Assembly: GCA_965226885.1 (NCBI GenBank)
Contig: CBDDEL010000012.1
Location: 128,001-192,000 of the forward strand
DNA length: 64,000 bases
Source of the DNA: Opitutales bacterium
Lineage (GTDB): Bacteria; Verrucomicrobiota; Verrucomicrobiia; Opitutales; UBA2987
Reading direction: 5' to 3'
Shown here: one piece after another, positions 3,636 through 32,361 of the stretch
Numbering within the stretch: the first letter of the stretch is position 1
Layout of the letters: each line of letters begins with the position of its first letter
Program-made: the position numbers and the translations under genes
The notes under the pieces: model-generated
What the model saw: the letters and a program-made list of their open reading frames with translations, nothing else
Told to the model about the DNA's origin: nothing
Database searches by the model: none

Positions 3636-5452
3636 GAGGCTGTCCCAAAAATATAAAGATTTTATAGTCAACTGGATGACGTTGATAAAAAGAGCCGGAA
3701 AGAGCAAGTTTTTGCTCGATCCGGCCAAAAAAGGGTTCTATAATTGAGTTAGCGAAAATCAATATAGCCCTTTCTATGAAAAATATAGCCATCCAATGCC
3801 TCCTGCGTCCAGCTTTAACTGTGGTCGACCGGTGCCTCGATTACGATAACTTCCGCGCCACCATTGATCGAATCGATCGGCTGCTGATCGACTCGGAGGT
3901 GGAATCGCAGGCCATTGAGCTGGCCTTGGAGGGGTGGCCGCCAATGGGTCTAAAGGCCCGGCGGCAGCGGGCCAGTTTTGCCATCAAGGCACTGCGCATG
4001 GATACGCTGGGCCGTCTGCTCGGAGGGATTTCGTTTCGGCATTTGTCGCGGGCTCTGGGCAGCAGCGATCTGTTGGCCGACTTTTGCCGTGTCCGGCAGA
4101 TCGATGGCATCAGGGGCATCTCCAAAAGCACCCTGGAGCGGGCCTCGAAGTTTTTCAGCGAAGAGCAGTTGAGGGCCTTGCACCGGACCTTGGCTGAGGT
4201 GGTGGGCGATGCCCTTCTGGCCCGGCAGGTGGGATTGGACAAGCCGATTGACACCACCATTTGCCTGATCGACGGCACCTGTTTGGAGGCTAACATTCAT
4301 TGGCCGACGGACTGGGTATTACTCAAGGATGTAGCCGGCACGTTGCTCAAAGCGATCCGGCTGATCCGCGAGAAGGCCGGTGTGCGCCATCGCATGCCGA
4401 TCGAACCGGAGCCCTTGGCTCGGCAGATGAATCGGCTGTGCATACAGATGACCCACAGCCGGCGGCGAAAGGACAGCGCGCGGCAGCGCAAGGGTATCTT
4501 GAGGCAGATGAAAAAGCTGCTCAAACGGATCGGGGAGCATGCCCGCAGTCACCGGGAATTATTGCAAGCCTGCTGGGAGCAAAGCGATTATAGCGAAAAA
4601 CAGGTCCAACAGATCCTCGCCCGGATGGAGCGCATGAGCGAGCAAATCCCGGTGGTCATCAAACAGGCGCACGAGCGGATCATTGGCGGCCGCCAGGTGA
4701 AAAACGCAGAGAAAGTCTTGAGTGTTTACGAACTCGATGGGCAGGTGATTGTGCGAGGTAAAGCGGGCCAAGAGGTCGAGTTCGGCAACACCCTGTTTTT
4801 GGGAGAAAGCGTTGAAGGGTACCTGCTGGACTGGAAACTCTACGGCAGCCGAACTCCAAGCGAAAATGAACAGATGCAAGAGAGTTTGCAAAGACAGAAC
4901 CGCTTCAACCTGGAAGAACCCATAGCGGCCATGTGCGCGGACCGGGGATTTGCCTCCCAGCGGGCCCGCCGGCAGTTAGCCCAGGAGGGAATCTACGACG
5001 CGCTCTGTGCACGGGCTCCGAAGCAGTTGAAAAAACGGATGGAGGAACCACTGTTCAGACAATTGCAAAAGCGCCGGGCCAGCACCGAAGGGCGGATCGG
5101 GGTATTGAAGAATCGCTGGCAGGCCGGGCGGTTGCGCAGCAAAGGCTTTGCCAACCGCTCGATCAGCGTAGCCTGGTCGGTACTCTCGCACAACCTATGG
5201 AAAGTAGCCAAGATGCTGGCCCAGCAAGACGAACTAAAAACCAAAGCGGCGGCCTAGAGAGCGGAAAAGCAAGGACAATACTTTTTCACAGCCTTACTGT
5301 CGGCTCATACAAAGAAAACCAGGCAACCGGACCCCAAAACCAGTATCCTAACGTCATAGGAGAGCAAAGTTGATACTCTCCCAAATGCAAATACCTCTAA
5401 AATGAGCGCCTATCAGAAGCCCTCGCAAAAATCACCCTTTTGGGACAGCCTC
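3636..5452 (+). mobile_element. ISNCY (ISDol1-like)/IS5-like insertion sequence, copy 1 (1817 bp)
   Basis: Terminal IR gaggctgtcccaaaa; four near-identical copies in window; flanks tagtta / taagta do not match. Confidence 0.9.
3776..5257 (+). CDS. DDE transposase (493 aa)
   Basis: IDGTCLEANIHWPTD, RGKAGQEVEFG, ADRGF, RASTEGRIGVLK motifs. Confidence 0.9.
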   Translation: MKNIAIQCLLRPALTVVDRCLDYDNFRATIDRIDRLLIDSEVESQAIELALEGWPPMGLKARRQRASFAIKALRMDTLGRLLGGISFRHLSRALGSSDLLADFCRVRQIDGIRGISKSTLERASKFFSEEQLRALHRTLAEVVGDALLARQVGLDKPIDTTICLIDGTCLEANIHWPTDWVLLKDVAGTLLKAIRLIREKAGVRHRMPIEPEPLARQMNRLCIQMTHSRRRKDSARQRKGILRQMKKLLKRIGEHARSHRELLQACWEQSDYSEKQVQQILARMERMSEQIPVVIKQAHERIIGGRQVKNAEKVLSVYELDGQVIVRGKAGQEVEFGNTLFLGESVEGYLLDWKLYGSRTPSENEQMQESLQRQNRFNLEEPIAAMCADRGFASQRARRQLAQEGIYDALCARAPKQLKKRMEEPLFRQLQKRRASTEGRIGVLKNRWQAGRLRSKGFANRSISVAWSVLSHNLWKVAKMLAQQDELKTKAAA

Positions 5453-5853
5453 TAAGTATCGTAAACACCTATCTGTATGAGACGACGCAAGCCTCCGCCC
5501 GGAAGGCAATGGATATTCTGGAAGCGCACCTGAAGGCCTATCCCAATAACCCTCTGAATACCGTAATGCATTTTCGAGCCGACTACACATGGTCGGACAT
5601 TCTCTTGGATTACGAAAAAGCGCTTCCCCACGCCCTTGCCCTGGCAGAACAGAAGATGAGCGATCCCTTCCGGTGGAGCCGACACTACTGGCACGTCGCA
5701 TCCATCTACCATCTCCGCCTTAAACAACCGGAAAAAGCCATCCCCTGGTATCAGTCGATTATCGAAGAAACCCCAGAGTCCCCCCATGTCTTCGCCGCGA
5801 AACAGATGGTGCAACAGCTGAAGCAGGAACACGCCTCTGAAGTGGATCATTAA
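5453..5853 (+). pseudogene. C-terminal fragment of a TPR-like protein, 5' end lost at the IS
   Basis: Frame is open from the IS end; ASIYHLRLKQPEKAIPWYQSIIEETPES is TPR-like. Confidence 0.6.
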
Positions 5854-10205: not shown

Positions 10206-10796
10206 TCCTTAGCCTAAGGCTCAGAAGGGTGCATGTCGGAAAGAAACGCCTCGCTGATTCGCTTCCCAAGAATGAAGTGCTTTCGATCAGGATACCACAG
10301 AACAGCTTCGCCGTTGATCTCCGTGAATCCGCAGTAGTCAATCGCCTCGTAGCGGGGAACGGAAAAGCCGACATCAATAGGCACGTCGTCGATGTCGATA
10401 AAAAGTTTCGGCTTACTCCACCAAATCGGTTGATGCGCTTCGGTGCGAAACGCGCCCACCGACACGTAGCATGGTCGCCTGTTTCGGGTGTCGTGGACAT
10501 CTATCGTATTGAAGGCATTCCCATCGTTATCATGGTAAAACAAAAGATATCTTCCATCGGATAGCCTGTATAGAGGTGCGTTATCGGAGGGGTTTAGAAT
10601 AGAGGCTGTCCCAAAAGGGTGATTTTTGCGAGGGCTTTTGATAGGCGCTCATTTTAGAGGTATTTGCATTTGGGAGAGTATCAACTTTGCTCTCCTATGA
10701 CGTTAGGATACTGGTTTTGGGGTCCGGTTGCCTGGTTTTCTTTGTATGAGCCGACAGTACGGCTGTGAAAAAGTATTGTCCTTGCTTTTCCGCTCT

Positions 10797-12278
10797 CTAG
10801 GCCGCCGCTTTGGTTTTTAGTTCGTCTTGCTGGGCCAGCATCTTGGCTACTTTCCATAGGTTGTGCGAGAGTACCGACCAGGCTACGCTGATCGAGCGGT
10901 TGGCAAAGCCTTTGCTGCGCAACCGCCCGGCCTGCCAGCGATTCTTCAATACCCCGATCCGCCCTTCGGTGCTGGCCCGGCGCTTTTGCAATTGTCTGAA
11001 CAGTGGTTCCTCCATCCGTTTTTTCAACTGCTTCGGATCGCGTGGACAGAGCGCGTCGTAGATTCCCTCCTGGGCTAACTGCCGGCGGGCCCGCTGGGAG
11101 GCAAATCCCCGGTCCGCGCACATGGCCGCTATGGGTTCTTCCAGGTTGAAGCGGTTCTGTCTTTGCAAACTCTCTTGCATTTGTTCATTTTCGCTTGGAG
11201 TTCGGCTGCCGTAGAGTTTCCAGTCCAGCAGGTACCCTTCAACGCTTTCTCCCAAAAACAGGGTGTTGCCGAACTCGACCTCTTGGCCCGCTTTACCTCG
11301 CACAATCACCTGCCCATCGAGTTCGTAAACACTCAAGACTTTCTCTGCGTTTTTCACCTGGCGGCCGCCAATGATCCGCTCGTGCGCCTGTTTGATGACC
11401 ACCGGGATTTGCTCGCTCATGCGCTCCATCCGGGCGAGGATCTGTTGGACCTGTTTTTCGCTGTAATCGCTTTGCTCCCAGCAGGCTTGCAATAATTCCC
11501 GGTGACTGCGGGCATGCTCCCCGATCCGTTTGAGCAGCTTTTTCATCTGCCTCAAGATACCCTTGCGCTGCCGCGCGCTGTCCTTTCGCCGCCGGCTGTG
11601 GGTCATCTGTATGCACAGCCGATTCATCTGCCGAGCCAAGGGCTCCGGTTCGATCGGCATGCGATGGCGCACACCGGCCTTCTCGCGGATCAGCCGGATC
11701 GCTTTGAGCAACGTGCCGGCTACATCCTTGAGTAATACCCAGTCCGTCGGCCAATGAATGTTAGCCTCCAAACAGGTGCCGTCGATCAGGCAAATGGTGG
11801 TGTCAATCGGCTTGTCCAATCCCACCTGCCGGGCCAGAAGGGCATCGGCCACCACCTCAGTCAAGGTCCGGTGCAAGGCCCTCAACTGCTCTTCGCTGAA
11901 AAACTTCGAGGCCCGCTCCAGGGTGCTTTTGGAGATGCCCCTGATGCCATCGATCTGCCGGACACGGCAAAAGTCGGCCAACAGATCGCTGCTGCCCAGA
12001 GCCCGCGACAAATGCCGAAACGAAATCCCTCCGAGCAGACGGCCCAGCGTATCCATGCGCAGTGCCTTGATGGCAAAACTGGCCCGCTGCCGCCGGGCCT
12101 TTAGACCCATTGGCGGCCACCCCTCCAAGGCCAGCTCAATGGCCTGCGATTCCACCTCCGAGTCGATCAGCAGCCGATCGATTCGATCAATGGTGGCGCG
12201 GAAGTTATCGTAATCGAGGCACCGGTCGACCACAGTTAAAGCTGGACGCAGGAGGCATTGGATGGCTATATTTTTCAT
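10797..12278 (-). CDS. DDE transposase (493 aa), copy 2
   Basis: Near-identical to 3776..5257. Confidence 0.9.
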   Translation of the reverse strand: MKNIAIQCLLRPALTVVDRCLDYDNFRATIDRIDRLLIDSEVESQAIELALEGWPPMGLKARRQRASFAIKALRMDTLGRLLGGISFRHLSRALGSSDLLADFCRVRQIDGIRGISKSTLERASKFFSEEQLRALHRTLTEVVADALLARQVGLDKPIDTTICLIDGTCLEANIHWPTDWVLLKDVAGTLLKAIRLIREKAGVRHRMPIEPEPLARQMNRLCIQMTHSRRRKDSARQRKGILRQMKKLLKRIGEHARSHRELLQACWEQSDYSEKQVQQILARMERMSEQIPVVIKQAHERIIGGRQVKNAEKVLSVYELDGQVIVRGKAGQEVEFGNTLFLGESVEGYLLDWKLYGSRTPSENEQMQESLQRQNRFNLEEPIAAMCADRGFASQRARRQLAQEGIYDALCPRDPKQLKKRMEEPLFRQLQKRRASTEGRIGVLKNRWQAGRLRSKGFANRSISVAWSVLSHNLWKVAKMLAQQDELKTKAAA

Positions 12279-18419: not shown

Positions 18420-20252
18420 GAGGCTGTCCCAAAAATATAAAGATTTTATAGTCAACTGGATGACGTTGATAAAAAGAGCCGGAAAGAGCAAGTTTTTGCT
18501 CGATCCGGCCAAAAAAGGGTTCTATAATTGAGTTAGCGAAAATCAATATAGCCCTTTCTATGATCTATGAAAAATATAGCCATCCAATGCCTCCTGCGTC
18601 CAGCTTTAACTGTGGTCGACCGGTGCCTCGATTACGATAACTTCCGCGCCACCATTGATCGAATCGATCGGCTGCTGATCGACTCGGAGGTGGAATCGCA
18701 GGCCATTGAGCTGGCCTTGGAGGGGTGGCCGCCAATGGGTCTAAAGGCCCGGCGGCAGCGGGCCAGTTTTGCCATCAAGGCACTGCGCATGGATACGCTG
18801 GGCCGTCTGCTCGGAGGGATTTCGTTTCGGCATTTGTCGCGGGCTCTGGGCAGCAGCGATCTGTTGGCCGACTTTTGCCGTGTCCGGCAGATCGATGGCA
18901 TCAGGGGCATCTCCAAAAGCACCCTGGAGCGGGCCTCGAAGTTTTTCAGCGAAGAGCAGTTGAGGGCCTTGCACCGGACCTTGACTGAGGTGGTGGGCGA
19001 TGCCCTTCTGGCCCGGCAGGTGGGATTGGACAAGCCGATTGACACCACCATTTGCCTGATCGACGGCACCTGTTTGGAGGCTAACATTCATTGGCCGACG
19101 GACTGGGTATTACTCAAGGATGTAGCCGGCACGTTGCTCAAAGCGATCCGGCTGATCCGCGAGAAGGCCGGTGTGCGCCATCGCATGCCGATCGAACCGG
19201 AGCCCTTGGCTCGGCAGATGAATCGGCTGTGCATACAGATGACCCACAGCCGGCGGCGAAAGGACAGCGCGCGGCAGCGCAAGGGTATCTTGAGGCAGAT
19301 GAAAAAGCTGCTCAAACGGATCGGGGAGCATGCCCGCAGTCACCGGGAATTATTGCAAGCCTGCTGGGAGCAAAGCGATTACAGCGAAAAACAGGTCCAA
19401 CAGATCCTCGCCCGGATGGAGCGCATGAGCGAGCAAATCCCGGTGGTCATCAAACAGGCGCACGAGCGGATCATTGGCGGCCGCCAGGTGAAAAACGCAG
19501 AGAAAGTCTTGAGTGTTTACGAACTCGATGGGCAGGTGATTGTGCGAGGTAAAGCGGGCCAAGAGGTCGAGTTCGGCAACACCCTGTTTTTGGGAGAAAG
19601 CGTTGAAGGGTACCTGCTGGACTGGAAACTCTACGGCAGCCGAACTCCAAGCGAAAATGAACAAATGCAAGAGAGTTTGCAAAGACAGAACCGCTTCAAC
19701 CTGGAAGAACCCATAGCGGCCATGTGCGCGGACCGGGGATTTGCCTCCCAGCGGGCCCGCCGGCAGTTAGCCCAGGAGGGAATCTACGACGCGCTCTGTC
19801 CACGCGATCCGAAGCAGTTGAAAAAACGGATGGAGGAACCACTGTTCAGACAATTGCAAAAGCGCCGGGCCAGCACCGAAGGGCGGATCGGGGGGATCGG
19901 GGTATTGAAGAATCGCTGGCAGGCCGGGCGGTTGCGCAGCAAAGGCTTTGCCAACCGCTCGATCAGCGTAGCCTGGTCGGTACTCTCGCACAACCTATGG
20001 AAAGTAGCCAAGATGCTGGCCCAGCAAGACGAACTAAAAACCAAAGCGGCGGCCTAGAGAGCGGAAAAGCAAGGACAATACTTTTTCACAGCCGTACTGT
20101 CGGCTCATACAAAGAAAACCAGGCAACCGGACCCCAAAACCAGTATCCTAACGTCATAGGAGAGCAAAGTTGATACTCTCCCAAATGCAAATACCTCTAA
20201 AATGAGCGCCTATCAAAAGCCCTCGCAAAAATCACCCTTTTGGGACAGCCTC
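18420..20252 (+). mobile_element. ISNCY/IS5-like IS copy 3 (1833 bp)
   Basis: IRs; carries private 7-bp and 9-bp duplications; flanks tagtta / taaacta do not match. Confidence 0.9.
18567..20057 (+). CDS. DDE transposase copy 3 (496 aa, GIG insertion next to the predicted catalytic E)
   Basis: EGRIGGIGVLK vs EGRIGVLK in other copies. Confidence 0.88.
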   Translation: MKNIAIQCLLRPALTVVDRCLDYDNFRATIDRIDRLLIDSEVESQAIELALEGWPPMGLKARRQRASFAIKALRMDTLGRLLGGISFRHLSRALGSSDLLADFCRVRQIDGIRGISKSTLERASKFFSEEQLRALHRTLTEVVGDALLARQVGLDKPIDTTICLIDGTCLEANIHWPTDWVLLKDVAGTLLKAIRLIREKAGVRHRMPIEPEPLARQMNRLCIQMTHSRRRKDSARQRKGILRQMKKLLKRIGEHARSHRELLQACWEQSDYSEKQVQQILARMERMSEQIPVVIKQAHERIIGGRQVKNAEKVLSVYELDGQVIVRGKAGQEVEFGNTLFLGESVEGYLLDWKLYGSRTPSENEQMQESLQRQNRFNLEEPIAAMCADRGFASQRARRQLAQEGIYDALCPRDPKQLKKRMEEPLFRQLQKRRASTEGRIGGIGVLKNRWQAGRLRSKGFANRSISVAWSVLSHNLWKVAKMLAQQDELKTKAAA

Positions 20253-20277
20253 TAAACTACAGAACTATTTCAAATGA

Positions 20278-26021: not shown

Positions 26022-26460
26022 ATATTAAATATATCTGGCAGGATAAATGCAACCATATTCACCTCTTTGAAAGTTTCAATTCTATCTTGAAGCCATTGTG
26101 TTTCTTATTCAAGCCCATATTTTCCATTTCATCATAAGAAAATTTGTTTGAAATAATCGCTATGTGTTTAATAATAAGTTATTTAAGTATACTTATAGCG
26201 AAAGCGAACAAATTCTTAAAATCCAATGGGTGACGCAAAAAAGAGCAGTTTTCGGGTTCAATTCAACCGTCGAATCAAGTTGGAGTTCCACGGTGCGAAG
26301 GTTACCAGTGATGCAGGATTGTTACTCTACCGGGAACTTGATGAGGCTTTCGGGCTGACTGCGATAGGAAGCGAAAATGTCGTGGATGTAAACGCCGGGG
26401 AAAAACCGGTACGGTAAAGAGGGCGCTTTAAAACCGGTACGCTTATCCTAGAAAGGAGGA

Positions 26461-27968
26461 GTGTATCGAGATATGAAGCAATGGACAAGAGTGCGGCACA
26501 AAGTGCTGCGGGACAAGCAGAGCAAGCGCTCTGTAATGCGAGAAGAGGGACTGCACTGGGAGACCCTGGGAAAGATGCTGGCCTATTCCCAGCCGCCGGG
26601 ATACCGGCGCAAGAAGAGGCGAGAGCGCAAGATCGATCCGTATGTGGGCTGGATCGAGGAGGTGCTCAAAGCGGACCGGAACGTGCCCAAGAAGCAGCGC
26701 CATACGGCCAAACGGATCTACCAGCGTTTGGGTCGGGAGAAGGGCTACCAAGGGGGCTACACGGCGGTCAAGGAGGTGGTGGCCGAGCTGCGAGCGAGGC
26801 GGCGGGAAGTGTTCGTGCCGCTGGAGCACCGCCCCGGGGAGGGACAGGTGGACTTCGGTCATGCCCTGGTGAAGGAGGCGGGGCAATTGCGTAGGCGGCC
26901 ATTTTTTGCCATGAGCCTGCCCTACAGCGATGCCTTTTTCGTGCAGGTGTTCGAACGGGAGTGCACGGAGAGCTTCTGGGAGGGGCACCTGCGAGCTTTT
27001 GAGTTTTTCGGGGCGGTGCCCCGGCGCATCAGCTACGACAACTCGAAGGTGGCGGTGGGTAAGATTATCGGTTCGCGTGAACGCAAGCTGACCGACGGGT
27101 TTCTGCAGCTACAGAGCCATTACCTGTTCGAGGAACACTTCTGTCTGCCCGCCCGGCCCAACGCGAAGGGCGTGGTCGAGGGGATCGTGCGTTATGCCCG
27201 GGCCAACTTCCTGGTACCGGTACCGCAGGTTCGGGACCTGGAGGAACTCAACGCAAAGCTGTTGGAGGCATGTGAGCGGGACATGGAGCGTAAATTACGC
27301 GGGAAAAGGGCGGTGAAAAAGGAACTGCTGGCCGAGGAGCGCGCCGTCATGCTGCCGTTGCCGCCCATACCCTTTGAAGCGAGCCGCAAACGCTCGACCT
27401 GCGTCAGCAGCCTCTCGCTGGTGCGCTTCGAGTGCAACGACTATTCGGTGCCGGTGCGCTGCGCCCACCATCCGGTGGTGGTGGAAGGGTCCTGTCGGCA
27501 GGTGGTGATCTTCTGTGGGGGCCAAGAGGTGGCCCGGCACCGCCGCATTTGGGATAAAGAGCAAGTCTCTTTCGAGCCGGTGCACTACCTGGCTTTGCTG
27601 GAGAAAAAACCGGGCGCTTTGGACTTCGCCCGCCCACTCTCGGGCTGGCAGTTGCCGCAGTGCCTGCAGGTCCTCAGACGCCGGCTCGAAAGCCAATGCG
27701 GGGGCGAAGGCACCCGGGAGTATATCCGGGTGCTGCGGCTGTTGGAGAAACACCCCATGGCGGCCTTGCAGCAGGCCGTCGTCTCGGCCCTGCGGGTGGG
27801 GGGACTGACTCGTGAGGCCATCGCCCAGTATCTCTATCCTCAGGAAGACTACGGGAGCAGAACCTTCCGGCTGGGGACGGCCATCCACACCTGCGTCACG
27901 TCCGTGTGGCCGCCCCTGACCTCGGTGCCTACAGCGAACTGCTCAAGATTCCAGGAGGGGCTTTATGA
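26461..27968 (+). pseudogene. istA: IS21 transposase IstA with a late +2 frameshift
   Basis: ctggggac at 27871 vs ctggac in copy 2; also NAKGVVE vs NEKGVVE. Confidence 0.85.
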
Positions 27969-28732
27969 AGGAAGAAAAAAACCAGCTGCTGTTACACCAT
28001 CACCTCAAGAAACTGAAGTTGCCCACCATCCTGCGCGAATGGCCGGCGGTGGCCGCGGCTTGTTCCCGGGACCGGCTCGATTACGCCGCCTTTTTGTTGC
28101 ATCTGGTCGAACGGGAGCTCATTGAACGCGAACAGCGGGCCGCCCAGCGGCGGATCAAAAACGCCCGTTTCCCCGTGCTCAAGACCCTCGAGAGCTTCGC
28201 CTTTGAAGCGCAGCCCTCGATCAACGAAGCGCTCATCCGAGAGCTCATGCGCGGGGAGTATGTCGACCAGCGCGAAAACGTGCTGCTCCTCGGTAACGCC
28301 GGTACCGGTAAAACGCACCTGGCCACCGCCCTGGGCTTTGCCGCCTGTGCCCAGGGCCGGCGGATCCGTTTCTTCGGGGTCACCGCCCTGGTTACCCATA
28401 TGCTCGAGCAACGCGACAACCACGACCTGCAGCGCTTCATGAAGCAACTCGAAAGGCTCGACCTACTCATCCTCGACGAACTCGGTTACGTCCCTTTTTC
28501 CAAGACCGGTTCCGAACTGCTCTTCGACGTGGTCAGCCGCGCTTACGAGCGCACCAGTCTCATCGTCACCACCAACCTGCCCTTTGAGAACTGGATCGAA
28601 GTGCTCGGTTCCGAACGGCTCACCGGAGCTCTGCTGGACCGACTCACCCATCGGGTGCATATCCTCGAAGCCAACGGGCAAAGCTACCGCTTGCGCGATG
28701 CTCGACGCCGTCGCCGTGGCACAAAACAATAA
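27965..28732 (+). CDS. istB: IS21 helper ATPase IstB
   Basis: GNAGTGKTH, LLILDELGY, LLDRLTH. Confidence 0.93.
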   Translation: MKEEKNQLLLHHHLKKLKLPTILREWPAVAAACSRDRLDYAAFLLHLVERELIEREQRAAQRRIKNARFPVLKTLESFAFEAQPSINEALIRELMRGEYVDQRENVLLLGNAGTGKTHLATALGFAACAQGRRIRFFGVTALVTHMLEQRDNHDLQRFMKQLERLDLLILDELGYVPFSKTGSELLFDVVSRAYERTSLIVTTNLPFENWIEVLGSERLTGALLDRLTHRVHILEANGQSYRLRDARRRRRGTKQ

Positions 28733-28980
28733 ACGCCTTGGGCCCGGCTCGTCGGCCTCCGGCCTCCTCACCGACCCCAAGCCAATCCCCAAAACCAACT
28801 CCCAAACCCTAAACCTTGACGTACCTGCAATTACTAACCTAAACCTTATTCCAAGCGTACCGGTTTTACCCCGACCCCCGTACCGGTTTCATCCCGGCGT
28901 TTACACGTGGAGGAGCGCACGGGCAAAAATATCCAGCATGGTATAGCGGCTCTGCTTCGGCAGTCTGTCTTCAGTCGCCT

Positions 28981-29180
28981 GGCAACCTACAAGACACGAA
29001 TTGATCTCATCTGAAGCATATCTGAGTTGGCCATCACCAACCCGGATACTCCTGGCATTTTTAACGCTGTCACAGATCAACAGCTTTTTGAGTCCTTCCG
29101 AGAATGGGTCCATATAACTCGTCGGAGGAAGGACTCGAAAAAGCTGGGCAATCATACTGAGGCAACCTACAAGATACGAA
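28981..29180. other. 180-bp structured insertion bounded by a 20-bp direct repeat
   Basis: ggcaacctacaagaCacgaa (28981-29000) and ggcaacctacaagaTacgaa (29161-29180); two hairpin domains between them. Confidence 0.85.
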
Positions 29181-30528
29181 CGATGCGGAGCGACTGCGCT
29201 TTGATCCGGTCATGAGGCAGATTGTCGGGGGTCGTGCCGATTGGCAACCGGCGGCTTCGACCAGTGAAATGAGCCGCTTTGAAACACAGATGTTAACCAA
29301 GCCTGCGAATCTGAGCGCACTGATGGACATGAGTGGTCAATGGATCGACCAGGTGAATAGGCGAGTGGGGATGAAAAAATTGATTCTCGATATGGATAGT
29401 TCGGAGAGCCCTACTTACGGGAAGCAGGAAGGCTCGGCCTTCAACGGTCATTTCGGCTGCACCTGTTACCATCCCCTGTTCTGCTTCAACCAGTTTGGTG
29501 ATCTGGAACGGGCCAACCTGCGTAAAGGCAATGTGCACAGTGCCGACGATTGGTTGTCGGTGCTCCAACCGGTCGTTGCCCGCTATCGTGACTGTCCCCT
29601 GAAACGATTTTTCCGAGGTGACGCAGCCTTCGCCAATCCGGACCTCTACGGTTACCTTGAGCAAGAGAACTTCTCCTATGCCATTCGGCTGCAGAGCAAC
29701 ACGATTTTACAAAAACATATCGCCCCTTTACTCACTCGGCCAGTGGGGCGACCCTCGCGGGCACCCAAGGTGTTTTATACGAGTTTTTTGTATCAAGCCG
29801 CCAGTTGGCAGAGACCTCGCCGGGTGGTGGCCAAGGTCGAGTGGCAGGCCGGAGAGTTATTTGCGCGGGTCGGTTTCATCGTGACGAATCTGAACTGGCC
29901 ACCCAAGAAGGTAGTGAAATTTTACAACCACCGGGGCACCGCAGAGCAGTGGATCAAAGAGGGCAAACATGCCATCCACTGGACCCGCTTGTCCTGCCAT
30001 GACTTTGAGGACAACGCCGTTCGGCTTCAGCTCTTCGGCTTAGCCTACAATCTGGGTAACTTCATGCGCCGGTTGATTCTTCCCGGCAAGGTGAAGCACT
30101 GGATGCTGAGCTCTCTACGGGAGAAACTCATCAAAATCGGAGCAAAGGTGATCCACCATGCCAAGTATATCACTTTCCAGATGGCTGAGGTGGCCATCCC
30201 AAGAGAAATGTTTCGAACCATGCTGAAGCGAGTAGAGCGACTGCGACTCGCACCTGATACGGGGTGAGTAAGAAGATTTTTCGATACAAAAGGAACCAGT
30301 GCTGTGGAAACCTCCAACAGAAGGAAAGACCTTTCCCATGTTTGACCGAACAAAAGGAAAATCAGCAATAATTGTTAAATACTACCGATTTGATCATCAA
30401 ATAACGAAGGAATGGATTGCCAAATCACAATGAAAGTAGATAATTGGATCGAAATATTAGAAAGTAGTTATTTTCAACGATTACGAATGTTCATATGGGA
30501 AATCTCGGCTATAACCATTACAATTATG

Positions 30529-30544
30529 GGTAGTGTATTAAGTA
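30529..30544 (-). mobile_element. 16-bp IS1 end remnant, cut off by ISNCY copy 4
   Basis: ggtagtgtattaagta is identical to 37615-37630. Confidence 0.8.
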
Positions 30545-32361
30545 GAGGCTGTCCCAAAAGGGTGATTTTTGCGAGGGCTTTTGATAGGCGCTCATTTTAG
30601 AGGTATTTGCATTTGGGAGAGTATCAACTTTGCTCTCCTATGACGTTAGGATACTGGTTTTGGGGTCCGGTTGCCTGGTTTTCTTTGTATGAGCCGACAG
30701 TAAGGCTGTGAAAAAGTATTGTCCTTGCTTTTCCGCTCTCTAGGCCGCCGCTTTGGTTTTTAGTTCGTCTTGCTGGGCCAGCATCTTGGCTACTTTCCAT
30801 AGGTTGTGCGAGAGTACCGACCAGGCTACGCTGATCGAGCGGTTGGCAAAGCCTTTGCTGCGCAACCGCCCGGCCTGCCAGCGATTCTTCAATACCCCGA
30901 TCCGCCCTTCGGTGCTGGCCCGGCGCTTTTGCAATTGCCTGAACAGTGGTTCCTCCATCCGTTTTTTCAACTGCTTCGGATCGCGTGGACAGAGCGCGTC
31001 GTAGATTCCCTCCTGGGCTAACTGCCGGCGGGCCCGCTGGGAGGCAAATCCCCGGTCCGCGCACATGGCCGCTATGGGTTCTTCCAGGTTGAAGCGGTTC
31101 TGTCTTTGCAAACTCTCTTGCATTTGTTCATTTTCGCTTGGAGTTCGGCTGCCGTAGAGTTTCCAGTCCAGCAGGTACCCTTCAACGCTTTCTCCCAAAA
31201 ACAGGGTGTTGCCGAACTCGACCTCTTGGCCCGCTTTACCTCGCACAATCACCTGCCCATCGAGTTCGTAAACACTCAAGACTTTCTCTGCGTTTTTCAC
31301 CTGGCGGCCGCCAATGATCCGCTCGTGCGCCTGTTTGATGACCACCGGGATTTGCTCGCTCATGCGCTCCATCCGGGCGAGGATCTGTTGGACCTGTTTT
31401 TCGCTGTAATCGCCTTGCTCCCAGCAGGCTTGCAATAATTCCCGTTGACTGCGGGCATGCTCCCCGATCCGTTTGAGCAGCTTTTTCATCTGCCTCAAGA
31501 TACCCTTGCGCTGCCGCGCGCTGTCCTTTCGCCGCCGGCTGTGGGTCATCTGTATGCACAGCCGATTCATCTGCCGAGCCAAGGGCTCCGGTTCGATCGG
31601 CATGCGATGGCGCAAACCGGCCTTCTCGCGGATCAGCCGGATCGCTTTGAGCAACGTGCCGGCTACATCCTTGAGTAATACCCAGTCCGTCGGCCAATGA
31701 ATGTTAGCCTCCAAACAGGTGCCGTCGATCAGGCAAATGGTGGTGTCAATCGGCTTGTCCAATCCCACCTGCCGGGCCAGAAGGGCATCGCCCACCACCT
31801 CGGTCAAGGTCCGGTGCAAGGCCCTCAACTGCTCTTCGCTGAAAAACTTCGAGGCCCGCTCCAGGGTGCTTTTGGAGATGCCCCTGATGCCATCGATCTG
31901 CCGGACACGGCAAAAGTCGGCCAACAGATCGCTGCTGCCCAGAGCCCGCGACAAATGCCGAAACGAAATCCCTCCGAGCAGACGGCCCAGCGTATCCATG
32001 CGCAGTGCCTTGATGGCAAAACTGGCCCGCTGCCGCCGGGCCTTTAGACCCATTGGCGGCCACCCCTCCAAGGCCAGCTCAATGGCCTGCGATTCCACCT
32101 CCGAGTCGATCAGCAGCCGATCGATTCGATCAATGGTGGCGCGGAAGTTATCGTAATCGAGGCACCGGTCGACCACAGTTAAAGCTGGACGCAGGAGGCA
32201 TTGGATGGCTATATTTTTCATAGAAAGGGCTATATTGATTTTCGCTAACTCAATTATAGAACCCTTTTTTGGCCGGATCGAGCAAAAACTTGCTCTTTCC
32301 GGCTCTTTTTATCAACGTCATCCAGTTGACTATAAAATCTTTATATTTTTGGGACAGCCTC
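30545..32361 (-). mobile_element. ISNCY/IS5-like IS copy 4 (1817 bp)
   Basis: IRs; flanks taagta / tattgta do not match. Confidence 0.9.
30740..32221 (-). CDS. DDE transposase copy 4
   Basis: Near-identical to 3776..5257. Confidence 0.9.
   Translation of the reverse strand: MKNIAIQCLLRPALTVVDRCLDYDNFRATIDRIDRLLIDSEVESQAIELALEGWPPMGLKARRQRASFAIKALRMDTLGRLLGGISFRHLSRALGSSDLLADFCRVRQIDGIRGISKSTLERASKFFSEEQLRALHRTLTEVVGDALLARQVGLDKPIDTTICLIDGTCLEANIHWPTDWVLLKDVAGTLLKAIRLIREKAGLRHRMPIEPEPLARQMNRLCIQMTHSRRRKDSARQRKGILRQMKKLLKRIGEHARSQRELLQACWEQGDYSEKQVQQILARMERMSEQIPVVIKQAHERIIGGRQVKNAEKVLSVYELDGQVIVRGKAGQEVEFGNTLFLGESVEGYLLDWKLYGSRTPSENEQMQESLQRQNRFNLEEPIAAMCADRGFASQRARRQLAQEGIYDALCPRDPKQLKKRMEEPLFRQLQKRRASTEGRIGVLKNRWQAGRLRSKGFANRSISVAWSVLSHNLWKVAKMLAQQDELKTKAAA

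Follow-up and report, generated by a model that had tools for sequence, protein, structure and literature searches.

The subject of this analysis was an insert of 180 bp in an IS1380 transposase gene, located at positions 28981-29180 of a 64,000-nt stretch of contig CBDDEL010000012.1 from an Opitutales bacterium (assembly GCA_965226885.1, positions 128,001-192,000 of the forward strand), the whole of which is referred to as the window. Comparison with full-length relatives indicated that the insert is very probably the left end, dead and standing alone, of an insertion sequence (IS) of the IS110 family, carrying a non-functional bridge RNA gene. The insert is the fossil of a known system rather than a new element. 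Its loss of function follows from the absence of the right-target guide and the donor-binding loop, from the inversion of its 5' stem-loop and from the broken state of the only recombinase gene in the genome.

The BLASTN comparison of the insert with the whole source genome (G000), proposed in the first-pass annotation of the window, revealed exactly one other copy, at C17:887149-887339. The longer version encoding an IS110 recombinase, for which a search had been suggested there as well, was present twice, on contig C17 of the source genome and in another genome of the same genus, G004. In the C17 copy, the 160-nt interior of the insert forms the end of a 1553-bp insertion in the same IS1380 site, the 5' part of the interrupted IS1380 ending in ...GGTTACAAG and the 3' part restarting with ATACGAACGATG. 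The open reading frame (ORF) of this insertion, located on the strand opposite to the plus strand of the window, encodes a protein with the domains DEDD_Tnp_IS110 (PF01548, 1.8e-22) and Transposase_20 (PF02371, 2.2e-11). The same element, with 99-100% identity, was found in G004, in which the recombinase is intact and 309 aa long (PF01548, 1.4e-22; PF02371, 1.8e-17). The C17 recombinase gene is broken by a miniature inverted-repeat transposable element (MITE) of ~300 bp, for which 23 further BLAST matches, full or partial, were detected in the genome, and no other recombinase copies were found in the genome by tblastn. The G004 recombinase used as a query against genome contigs gave only two loci, both in one record of a metagenome-assembled genome; the more distant recombinase relatives were drawn from a separate genome search. 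In element orientation, the window insert corresponds to the non-coding left end upstream of the recombinase gene, and after un-flipping a 66-bp hairpin, it shares 181 of 182 positions with the left end of the C17 copy. The length of the element from core to core is 1250-1262 bp in the relatives from G001, G039 and G094, and 1553 bp, including the MITE, in C17. The parent is an IS110-family element of ~1.25 kb with a DEDD/RuvC-like plus Tnp recombinase, a CT core and no terminal inverted repeats.

The junctions in G000 C17, G004, G001, G039 and G094 had the arrangement X-CT-(TGTAGGTT..........CACA(G/A)TTG)-CT-Y, the element standing in parentheses, with CT on both sides and terminal inverted repeats lacking. 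In element orientation, these junctions read TTTTCGTGT-CT-(TGTAGGTTGCC ... GACACAGTTG)-CT-TCGTAAAC in G004, TCTTCCT-CT-(TGTAGGTTACC ... CACAATTG)-CT-TCGTCTTG in G001, TCATCG(C/T)-CT-(...)-CT-TCGTCCC in G039 and ACCTCCC-CT-(...)-CT-GCAAGC in G094. The TCGT that recurs after the right end in G004, G001 and G039 was considered as a part of the element and rejected, as it forms pairs with the right-target guides in both G039 and G000 and the G094 junction is devoid of it.

On contig 21 of G004, the right end of a truncated copy adjoins an in-frame IS1380 site (...CACAGTTG-CT-TTGTATCCAGCCAGGCG), and the right flank, CT-TTGTATCC, is the exact complement of the guide UACAAAG. The flanks at the IS1380 junctions thus define the natural target TTCGT(A/G)T-CT-TTGTATCC on the element strand. 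On the IS1380 strand, the target codes for G-Y-K-D-T-N and lies in the conserved ...AGY(K/E)DTND... site of the transposase. This in-frame site is unoccupied in six copies in G000, which fits an element that is now inactive there. The site-specific targeting of a conserved IS1380 motif, initially attributed to the insert, is real in that the guides match the site, but it is a property of the full element.

The structure of the left end was evaluated in an alignment of five left ends (G000 C17, G001, G039, G094 and G091), belonging to elements with recombinases down to ~45% identity. The left ends were 310-312 nt long and aligned at 79% mean column identity. The consensus fold comprised 93 pairs, 31 of them with compensatory changes. 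With 85 pairs counted, 90.6% of the cells were paired, in comparison with 38-49% when the partners were slid by 1-3 columns, and 32 pairs were changed on both sides, in comparison with 6-13 in the slid controls. None of 500 shuffles reached the observed pairing and covariation values; the left ends being few and related, this figure overstates the significance and the slid control is the fairer one. The fold and covariation check on homologues, proposed in the first-pass annotation, thus spoke for a conserved structure in five left ends. The first module is a long 5' stem-loop, after which comes a stem-loop that is short and weak. [quoted passage not shown] Judged from these alignments, the left end encodes a predicted bridge RNA in which two 5' stem-loops precede the target-binding loop and, after it, the donor-binding loop.

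The guides could be assigned by comparison with the flanks of the elements. The left-target guide (LTG) of G000 and G004 is UUCGUGUCU, encoded by TTCGTGTCT, and the 3' side of the target loop holds ..UUACAAAG. The right-target guide (..UACAAAG) matches the IS1380 site, being complementary to the CT-TTGTA present on contig 21 of G004. In the donor loop, ACAGUUG equals the right-end sequence and CUACAAG is complementary to the CT-TGTAG of the left-end tip; the donor-loop sequences ACAGTTG and ACAATTG match right ends finishing with ..ACAGTTG and ..ACAATTG, respectively. In the consensus fold, left-end nt 1-8 pair with the right-donor guide. The 7-nt left flank of an element together with CT matched the homologous position of its own left end at 7-9 of 9 nt in 14 out of 16 junctions, and the guides followed the flanks from element to element (TTCGTGT, TCTTCGT, TCATCGT, ACCTCCC, ACCCCGT, CTGGATT, CTGGATC and others). 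The two misses concerned G004 and the distant relative G082. The miss in G004 is explained by its left end being split by an IS200-like element, which placed the guide outside the scanned stretch.

The IS200-like element occupies L003 1006-1452 (+) and splits the left end of the otherwise intact G004 element just upstream of the LTG. It encodes a protein with a Y1_Tnp domain (4.5e-34) and is flanked by hairpins (CCCCGTAGC..GCTACGGGG).

Inspection of the ends by eye revealed TTGCAT close to the right end and TAGGTT at left-end nt 3-8. With the two ends joined through one CT, these boxes would be separated by 17 bp and are a plausible candidate for a -35/-10-like junction promoter. The motif in the loop of the 5' stem-loop, CCGAGAAUGGG..N..CUCGUCGGAGG, gave 25 locus hits in 13 genomes of the phylum, always ~45-60 nt after the CT-TGTA(G/T)G start of a left end, and the stems around it differ markedly in sequence in more distant relatives. 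The conserved loop is a candidate recombinase-binding motif. The loop CCGAGAAUGGG..CUCGUCGGAGG was nearly invariant in the left ends of IS110-family elements of the phylum with recombinases 32-51% identical, the loci L007, L008, L017, L018, L020, L021, L023, L025 and L030 being among those that carry it.

The insert itself had been described in the first-pass annotation as 180 bp bounded by a direct repeat and containing two adjacent stem-loop domains, and both parts of this description were reproduced. A repeat search identified the 20-nt direct repeat at 28981-29000 and 29161-29180, with 95% identity (19/20) and a spacing of 180 nt, and also recovered the arms of domain 2 (29081-29099 and 29127-29146), in which one base is bulged, together with the outer stem of domain 1, which is 7 nt long (29001-29007 and 29074-29080). 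Refolding reproduced both domains on either strand. The interior folded with -54.9 kcal/mol (z -3.4) on the minus strand and with -54.3 kcal/mol (z -5.0) on the plus strand, and domain 2 folded alone reached a z of -5.8, all z-scores being calculated against mononucleotide shuffles. As reported before, the reading frame runs through ...SVFSRLA (to 28984) into the insert and resumes with DTNDAERL..., and the insert contains neither terminal inverted repeats nor a gene. Rfam searches with the insert and with the full C17 element returned sub-threshold miRNA and snoRNA noise only and no family.

The 1-nt shortfall noted earlier was also found, as dropping one repeat unit leaves a site 1 nt shorter than in the in-frame IS1380 copies. 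The A-G-Y-E-D motif, said to be intact in another IS1380 copy of the window, does occur in two copies, at ~12630 (+) and 48374 (-), but these belong to a more distant IS (LVAGYEDLND), the transposase copies of which keep LVAGYEDLNDFDTLRH; a pattern search for the in-frame AGY(E/K)D IS1380 site gave 0 matches within the window. The 7-nt cctggca match between 28978-84 and 29051-57 is at chance level, a possibility that had been allowed, since three other exact repeats of 7-8 nt were present in the same 451-bp scan. The insert was covered without differences by contigs from public runs, which may include the source sample (X2 record 19, 28990-29192; X1 records 2 and 3, 28981-29190). None of the public-run contig pieces listed bridged the left junction.

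When the insert was read against the full copies, each of its parts could be assigned. The true insertion junction is the CT core at 29172-29173 (minus strand), in agreement with the CT at both element ends in G000 C17, G004, G001, G039 and G094. It is followed in element orientation by left-end nt 1-25 (29147-29171, minus strand), which include the tip TGTAGGTTGCC at 29161-29171 and the -10-like TAGGTT at 29164-29169, the putative promoter box having been picked by eye. The next segment, domain 2 (29081-29146), is the conserved 5' stem-loop in flipped orientation, on the plus strand, its 66 nt being 100% identical to the opposite strand of the C17 copy. Domain 1 (29001-29080, minus strand) was resolved by the alignment and the consensus fold into the 5' half of the stem at the base of the target loop (~29003-29018), the conserved covarying hairpin at 29019-29048, which is the inner stem described initially, the CCAGG half-stem at 29051-29055 and a weak second stem-loop. 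The outer stem of this domain, ttgatct/agatcaa, is unconserved in relatives. The resemblance to IS110 bridge RNAs seen in the first-pass annotation was right in so far as a longer IS110 version exists, but the two hairpins are 5' stem-loops that precede the guide loops and not the guide loops themselves. Neither does the cctggca of the domain-1 loop act as a target guide: it is the complement of UGCCAGG, the CCAGG of which stays unchanged in relatives that have unrelated targets and finds its pairing partner in a downstream CCUGG, lost from the window.

The last IS110 sequence kept lies at 28992-29000 (minus strand) and consists of the LTG-coding TTCGTGT and the CT core, as established by comparison with full copies and by the flank matches; it marks the endpoint of the deletion or recombination. 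After TTCGTGTCT, the full copies continue with TGAACCG, which belongs to the target-binding loop's distal hairpin, and the window continues with TGTAGGTTGCC and then IS1380 (AGGCG...). This 11-nt copy of the left-end tip, which is right-donor-like, occupies 28981-28991 (minus strand) and is identical to left-end nt 1-11. The remnant extends from left-end nt 1 (29171 in the window) to the last base of the LTG and core (28992), so that the first 178 bp of the left end and one CT were retained. The right-target guide, the donor-binding loop, the 3' stem halves, the recombinase gene and the right end were lost.

This anatomy accounts for the 20-bp repeat. Its right copy is composed of the IS1380 left target TTCGTAT, CT and left-end nt 1-11, its left copy of the LTG-coding TTCGTGT, CT and a second copy of left-end nt 1-11, and the single mismatch is the A/G difference between target and guide. 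Two things thus gave rise to the repeat: the guide is a copy of the target, and the far side carries an 11-nt patch of the left-end tip. A target duplication or an att core was rejected as the source of the repeat on account of this composition. The earlier suggestion that the repeat was partly donor-derived instead of being a simple target-site duplication proved correct, the repeat being made of guide DNA or target and the left-end tip.

The flipped segment is a 66-bp near-perfect palindrome that was inverted including its bulged base (compare L001 1183-1248); all other copies seen have the canonical orientation. The crossover of such a flip must fall within the outer 9-bp arms. Contigs from the public runs show both orientations of the hairpin, the opposite-strand joints being equally explained by the C17 copy.

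The IS1380 sequences on the two sides of the insert were compared with the other copies of the genome. The left side (28907-29000) is 89.5% identical to the main IS1380 family and 96.8% identical to the copy at C17:723, and the right side (29171-29400) is 99.1-99.6% identical to the main family and 92.9% identical to the C17:723 copy; over 29171-29804, the identity to the main family is 98.9%. Flanks of different IS1380 lineages indicate that the insert marks the place where two IS1380 copies became joined.

In the patch, the 11 nt of TGTAGGTTGCC stand where IS1380 has the 12 nt TTGTATCCTGCC, which gives an ACC codon, and the 1-nt shortfall and the frameshift result from this 11-nt patch standing in place of 12 nt. 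The patched junction CTTGTAGGTTGCCAGG occurred four times in five genus genomes (in the window, on C15 of G000 and twice in G004). Insert-free patched sites were located at G000 C15:382563-382582, L015 2509-2528 and G004:C29:179291, in at least two IS1380 backgrounds (A-like in G000 and B-like in G004), and also in contigs of a marine-sediment run (X10), where 28991 is joined to 29171. A milder form, CT-TGTAGCC.., that is 1 nt short was found at C17:723724-723743, and the right junction of the full C17 copy, CT-TGTAACCC, is 1 nt short as well. The insertion reaction itself was rejected as the cause of the shortfall, the right end on G004 contig 21 adjoining an in-frame site. The patches may be footprints of imprecise element loss, which would have been followed by re-insertion into such sites. 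A patch could have originated by slippage or branch migration between the imperfect repeats of the junction, CT-TGTAGGTTGCC and CT-TNGTANCCNGCC.

As to the order of events and the agent of the cut, we infer that a crossover in the CT core of the LTG DNA, or in the surrounding 11-nt identity TTCGTGTCTTG, led to the loss of the rest of the element. One partner would have been the guide-coding DNA of an element residing in a main-family IS1380, and the other, in a different IS1380 copy, either a patched site alone or the junction of such a site with a right end. The partner site would have carried the first 11 nt of the element, TGTAGGTTGCC, fused to IS1380. Since the guide must copy the left half of the target, the guide DNA constitutes a built-in pseudo-target, and in terms of bridge recombination this pseudo-target would have met a donor-like or half-matched site. 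The general proposal that guide DNA serves as a built-in pseudo-target of the element's own recombinase, self-recombination there yielding solo left ends and partial circles, is a tentative one, to which a rather low probability was given. For the cut in the window, nearly half of the probability was assigned to the recombinase and a large minority share to an enzyme-free process, the small rest going to reintegration of a 180-bp circle or to other routes. As context only, half-match bridge recombination is reported in part of a preprint (10.64898/2026.08.31.748434), and part of another describes IS110 partial circles and fragments that reuse one terminus and reintegrate, with internal endpoints that are recurrent and non-random (10.64898/2026.08.14.744561).

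Several observations weigh against the favoured explanation with its recombinase-made cut. An exchange confined to the CT core cannot make an 11-nt patch, and the right-target guide is a poor match for TGAACCG, the right half of the pseudo-target. Neither a reciprocal product nor a precursor, that is, a right end adjoining the 11-nt patch, was found in the five genus genomes. The only recombinase gene of the genome is the one broken by the MITE, which means that the event is old or that the copy used has since been lost. The RNA fold is supported by only five distinct left ends, which are related. Moreover, the guide DNA has the 11 nt TTCGTGTCTTG in common with a 1-nt-short IS1380 site, by which the same product could arise through enzyme-free microhomology. 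Microhomology-driven joining or replication slippage between these 11 nt in the guide DNA and in the 1-nt-short site of another copy is a realistic alternative, though one rated clearly below an even chance. The shared 11 nt are read directly, the flanking IS1380 pieces come from different lineages, nested IS elements and MITEs crowd the genome, and the 66-bp hairpin flip shows that the same fragment underwent an enzyme-free rearrangement; the insert-free 1-nt-short sites are likewise explained most simply as slippage footprints of CT-TGTAGGTTGCC against CT-TNGTANCCNGCC. However, for distant loci to recombine, 11 nt is a very short stretch, and the endpoint falls exactly at the one place of the element built for recognition by the recombinase and its RNA. 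The recurrent, non-random internal endpoints of partial IS110 products, described in part of the preprint 10.64898/2026.08.14.744561, also speak against microhomology.

It is improbable that the 180-bp unit was ever, or still is, a mobile partial circle with the junction TTCGTGT-CT-TGTAGGTTGCC, re-inserting at 20-bp IS1380 sites, which is the reading nearest to that of the first-pass annotation. Excision of such a circle would take place between the guide pseudo-target and the left junction, each with the reading left-target-CT, and sites with a single repeat would be empty or excised ones, in an attP/attB-like relation. The same 20-bp site at both ends of the insert would be expected of it, and single-repeat sites do occur in G000, in G004, in at least two IS1380 backgrounds and in marine-sediment contigs; ISPpu9 forms circles of its small-RNA module alone (part of PMC12288879), and partial IS110 fragments reintegrate (part of 10.64898/2026.08.14.744561). 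Only one occupied site is known, however, and neither the first origin of the 11-nt patch nor the chimeric IS1380 flanks are accounted for by a circle. A fragment without a complete guide loop would also depend wholly on a full element, of which the genome has no intact one. The pattern CTTGTAGGTT-N160-190-CTTGTAGGTT, representing a second solo unit, was confined to 1 genome out of 401 in the order, the hit being the window itself, and the clade-wide signature of guide, CT and left-end tip gave 2 hits in metagenome contigs, both chance matches within a coding gene and without left-end features. With a single solo copy in all searches, the insert is a one-off remnant as far as sampled, and the idea of a non-autonomous mobile element, advanced in the first-pass annotation, is not borne out by these 401 genomes or the metagenome scan.

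An unrelated origin, whether as a relic of a tyrosine- or serine-recombinase att site, as a novel small autonomous element or as an artefact of assembly or template switching, is extremely improbable. The lack of terminal inverted repeats, of a gene and of an Rfam match would suit it, but the identity of 181/182 to an IS110-family left end and the unchanged insert in the public-run contigs contradict it, and an integrase is neither needed nor seen. The tyrosine-recombinase att relic that had been considered equally possible was dropped, as the longer version encodes only an IS110-type recombinase and the repeat is explained by the guide and the tip.

Insertion into other mobile elements is known in the family, the IS110-family elements IS4321 and IS5075 inserting into the terminal repeats of Tn21-type transposons. 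The parent element resembles them in its site-specific insertion into a conserved sequence of another transposable element and differs in that its target lies within a transposase coding sequence (AGY(K/E)DTND) and not in a terminal repeat. Parallels also exist with IS621, as described in part of PMC11208160. The RNA of IS621 consists of a 5' stem-loop and, after it, two stem-loops with internal loops, the first target-binding and the second donor-binding; its LTG has the sense of the left target and core and so reads like the top strand, and its promoter is rebuilt across the circle junction (PMC11208160). Shared with IS621 are the DEDD plus Tnp recombinase, the absence of terminal inverted repeats, the CT core and the long left end upstream of the gene, as well as the RNA order of 5' stem-loop, target loop and donor loop, the 9-nt LTG in the sense of the left target plus core, and the -35/-10-like boxes that are united only across the right-end/left-end junction, which were picked by eye in the present elements (PMC11208160, in part). 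Unlike in that part of the IS621 description, the left end is ~310 nt long here, in comparison with a 177-nt RNA in IS621, two stem-loops precede the target loop, the first with a strongly conserved loop, and the target is the transposase coding sequence of another IS instead of a REP (repetitive extragenic palindromic) element (PMC11208160). In contrast to IS621, the window holds a truncated, non-functional piece only.

The partial IS110 fragments described in two preprints (parts of 10.64898/2026.08.14.744561 and 10.64898/2026.08.31.748434) share with the remnant one true terminus, on the right-donor side, an internal end and half-site junctions. The available main-text parts of these preprints do not name guide-coding DNA as an internal endpoint, and the endpoint here is exactly the LTG. 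The remnant is also comparable to ISPpu9, in which a non-coding RNA module of an IS110-family element occurs apart from the transposase gene and circularises alone (part of PMC12288879). It differs from ISPpu9, again by that part of the source, in that ssr9, of which the genome contains several solo copies, is situated downstream of the transposase gene, whereas here a single upstream end with an incomplete RNA gene was found (PMC12288879).

The analysis adds a Verrucomicrobiota clade of putative bridge RNAs, resolved by sequence comparison only, with its guides, its target inside a transposase gene and the conserved loop of the 5' stem-loop. No description of the clade, of the IS1380 target or of the guide endpoint was found in open papers (for preprints, in their main texts), which is not proof of their being unpublished. 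If true, guide self-mimicry as a recombination hotspot would bear on the decay of IS110 elements and on the shedding of partial circles, and self-targeting could explain why, as reported in 2026, partial IS110 products have internal endpoints that recur. For bridge editors, it would mean that guide-encoding DNA on a donor plasmid is an unwanted, half-matched substrate. Likewise, if element loss does leave an 11-nt patch that frameshifts the IS1380 transposase, one IS would permanently disable the copies of another.

The IS1380 copy that carries the remnant is divided into three pieces, all on the plus strand. The left end of the IS and the start of the transposase gene were identified at 26170-26405 by BLAST to the other IS1380 copies of the genome, and the second piece (...SVFSRLA) lies at 28907-28980 and belongs to a lineage unlike that of the piece after the insert. 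The third piece (DTNDAERL..., 29174-30267, with the ORF at 29212-30267) encodes DDE_Tnp_1_4 (Pfam, 1.6e-102), and its first 7 nt correspond on the opposite strand to the left target TTCGTAT. Between the first two pieces, an IS21-family element is nested in the same IS1380 copy (26406-28906, plus strand), with istA at 26461-28125 and istB at 27965-28732, assigned by Pfam (IstB_IS21, 7e-74; Mu-transpos_C_2, 2.6e-22). It has the terminal inverted repeats TGTAAACGCCGG and CCGGCGTTTACA and a 6-bp target duplication, CGTGGA. With the nested IS21 and the IS110 remnant, one IS1380 copy thus contains two unrelated insertions.

Other mobile sequences were noted in the window and in the relatives. Another IS, encoding a 493-aa DDE transposase (DDE_Tnp_1, 1.1e-05), occurs at 3873-5458, 10600-12181, 18664-20255 and 30543-32124 of the window; one copy lies directly downstream of the studied IS1380, and the same IS truncates the IS1380 copy at C17:723. 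The MITE-like 300-bp element in the C17 recombinase gene (C17:888230-888540; L001 ~2231-2540) has the ends GCTGTCCCAAA... and ...TTTGGGACAGC, and nearly all of its matches lie in C17:729-895 kb and on C4. Another truncated left end, cut within domain 1 and located beside an unrelated gene, was detected in G002 (L005, G002:C135). In G001 (L012, G001:C51), eight copies of the left-end start with the hairpin were present besides the full-length left end on C6, and one of the G001 left-end copies has another IS within its target loop and no CT core at its left junction.

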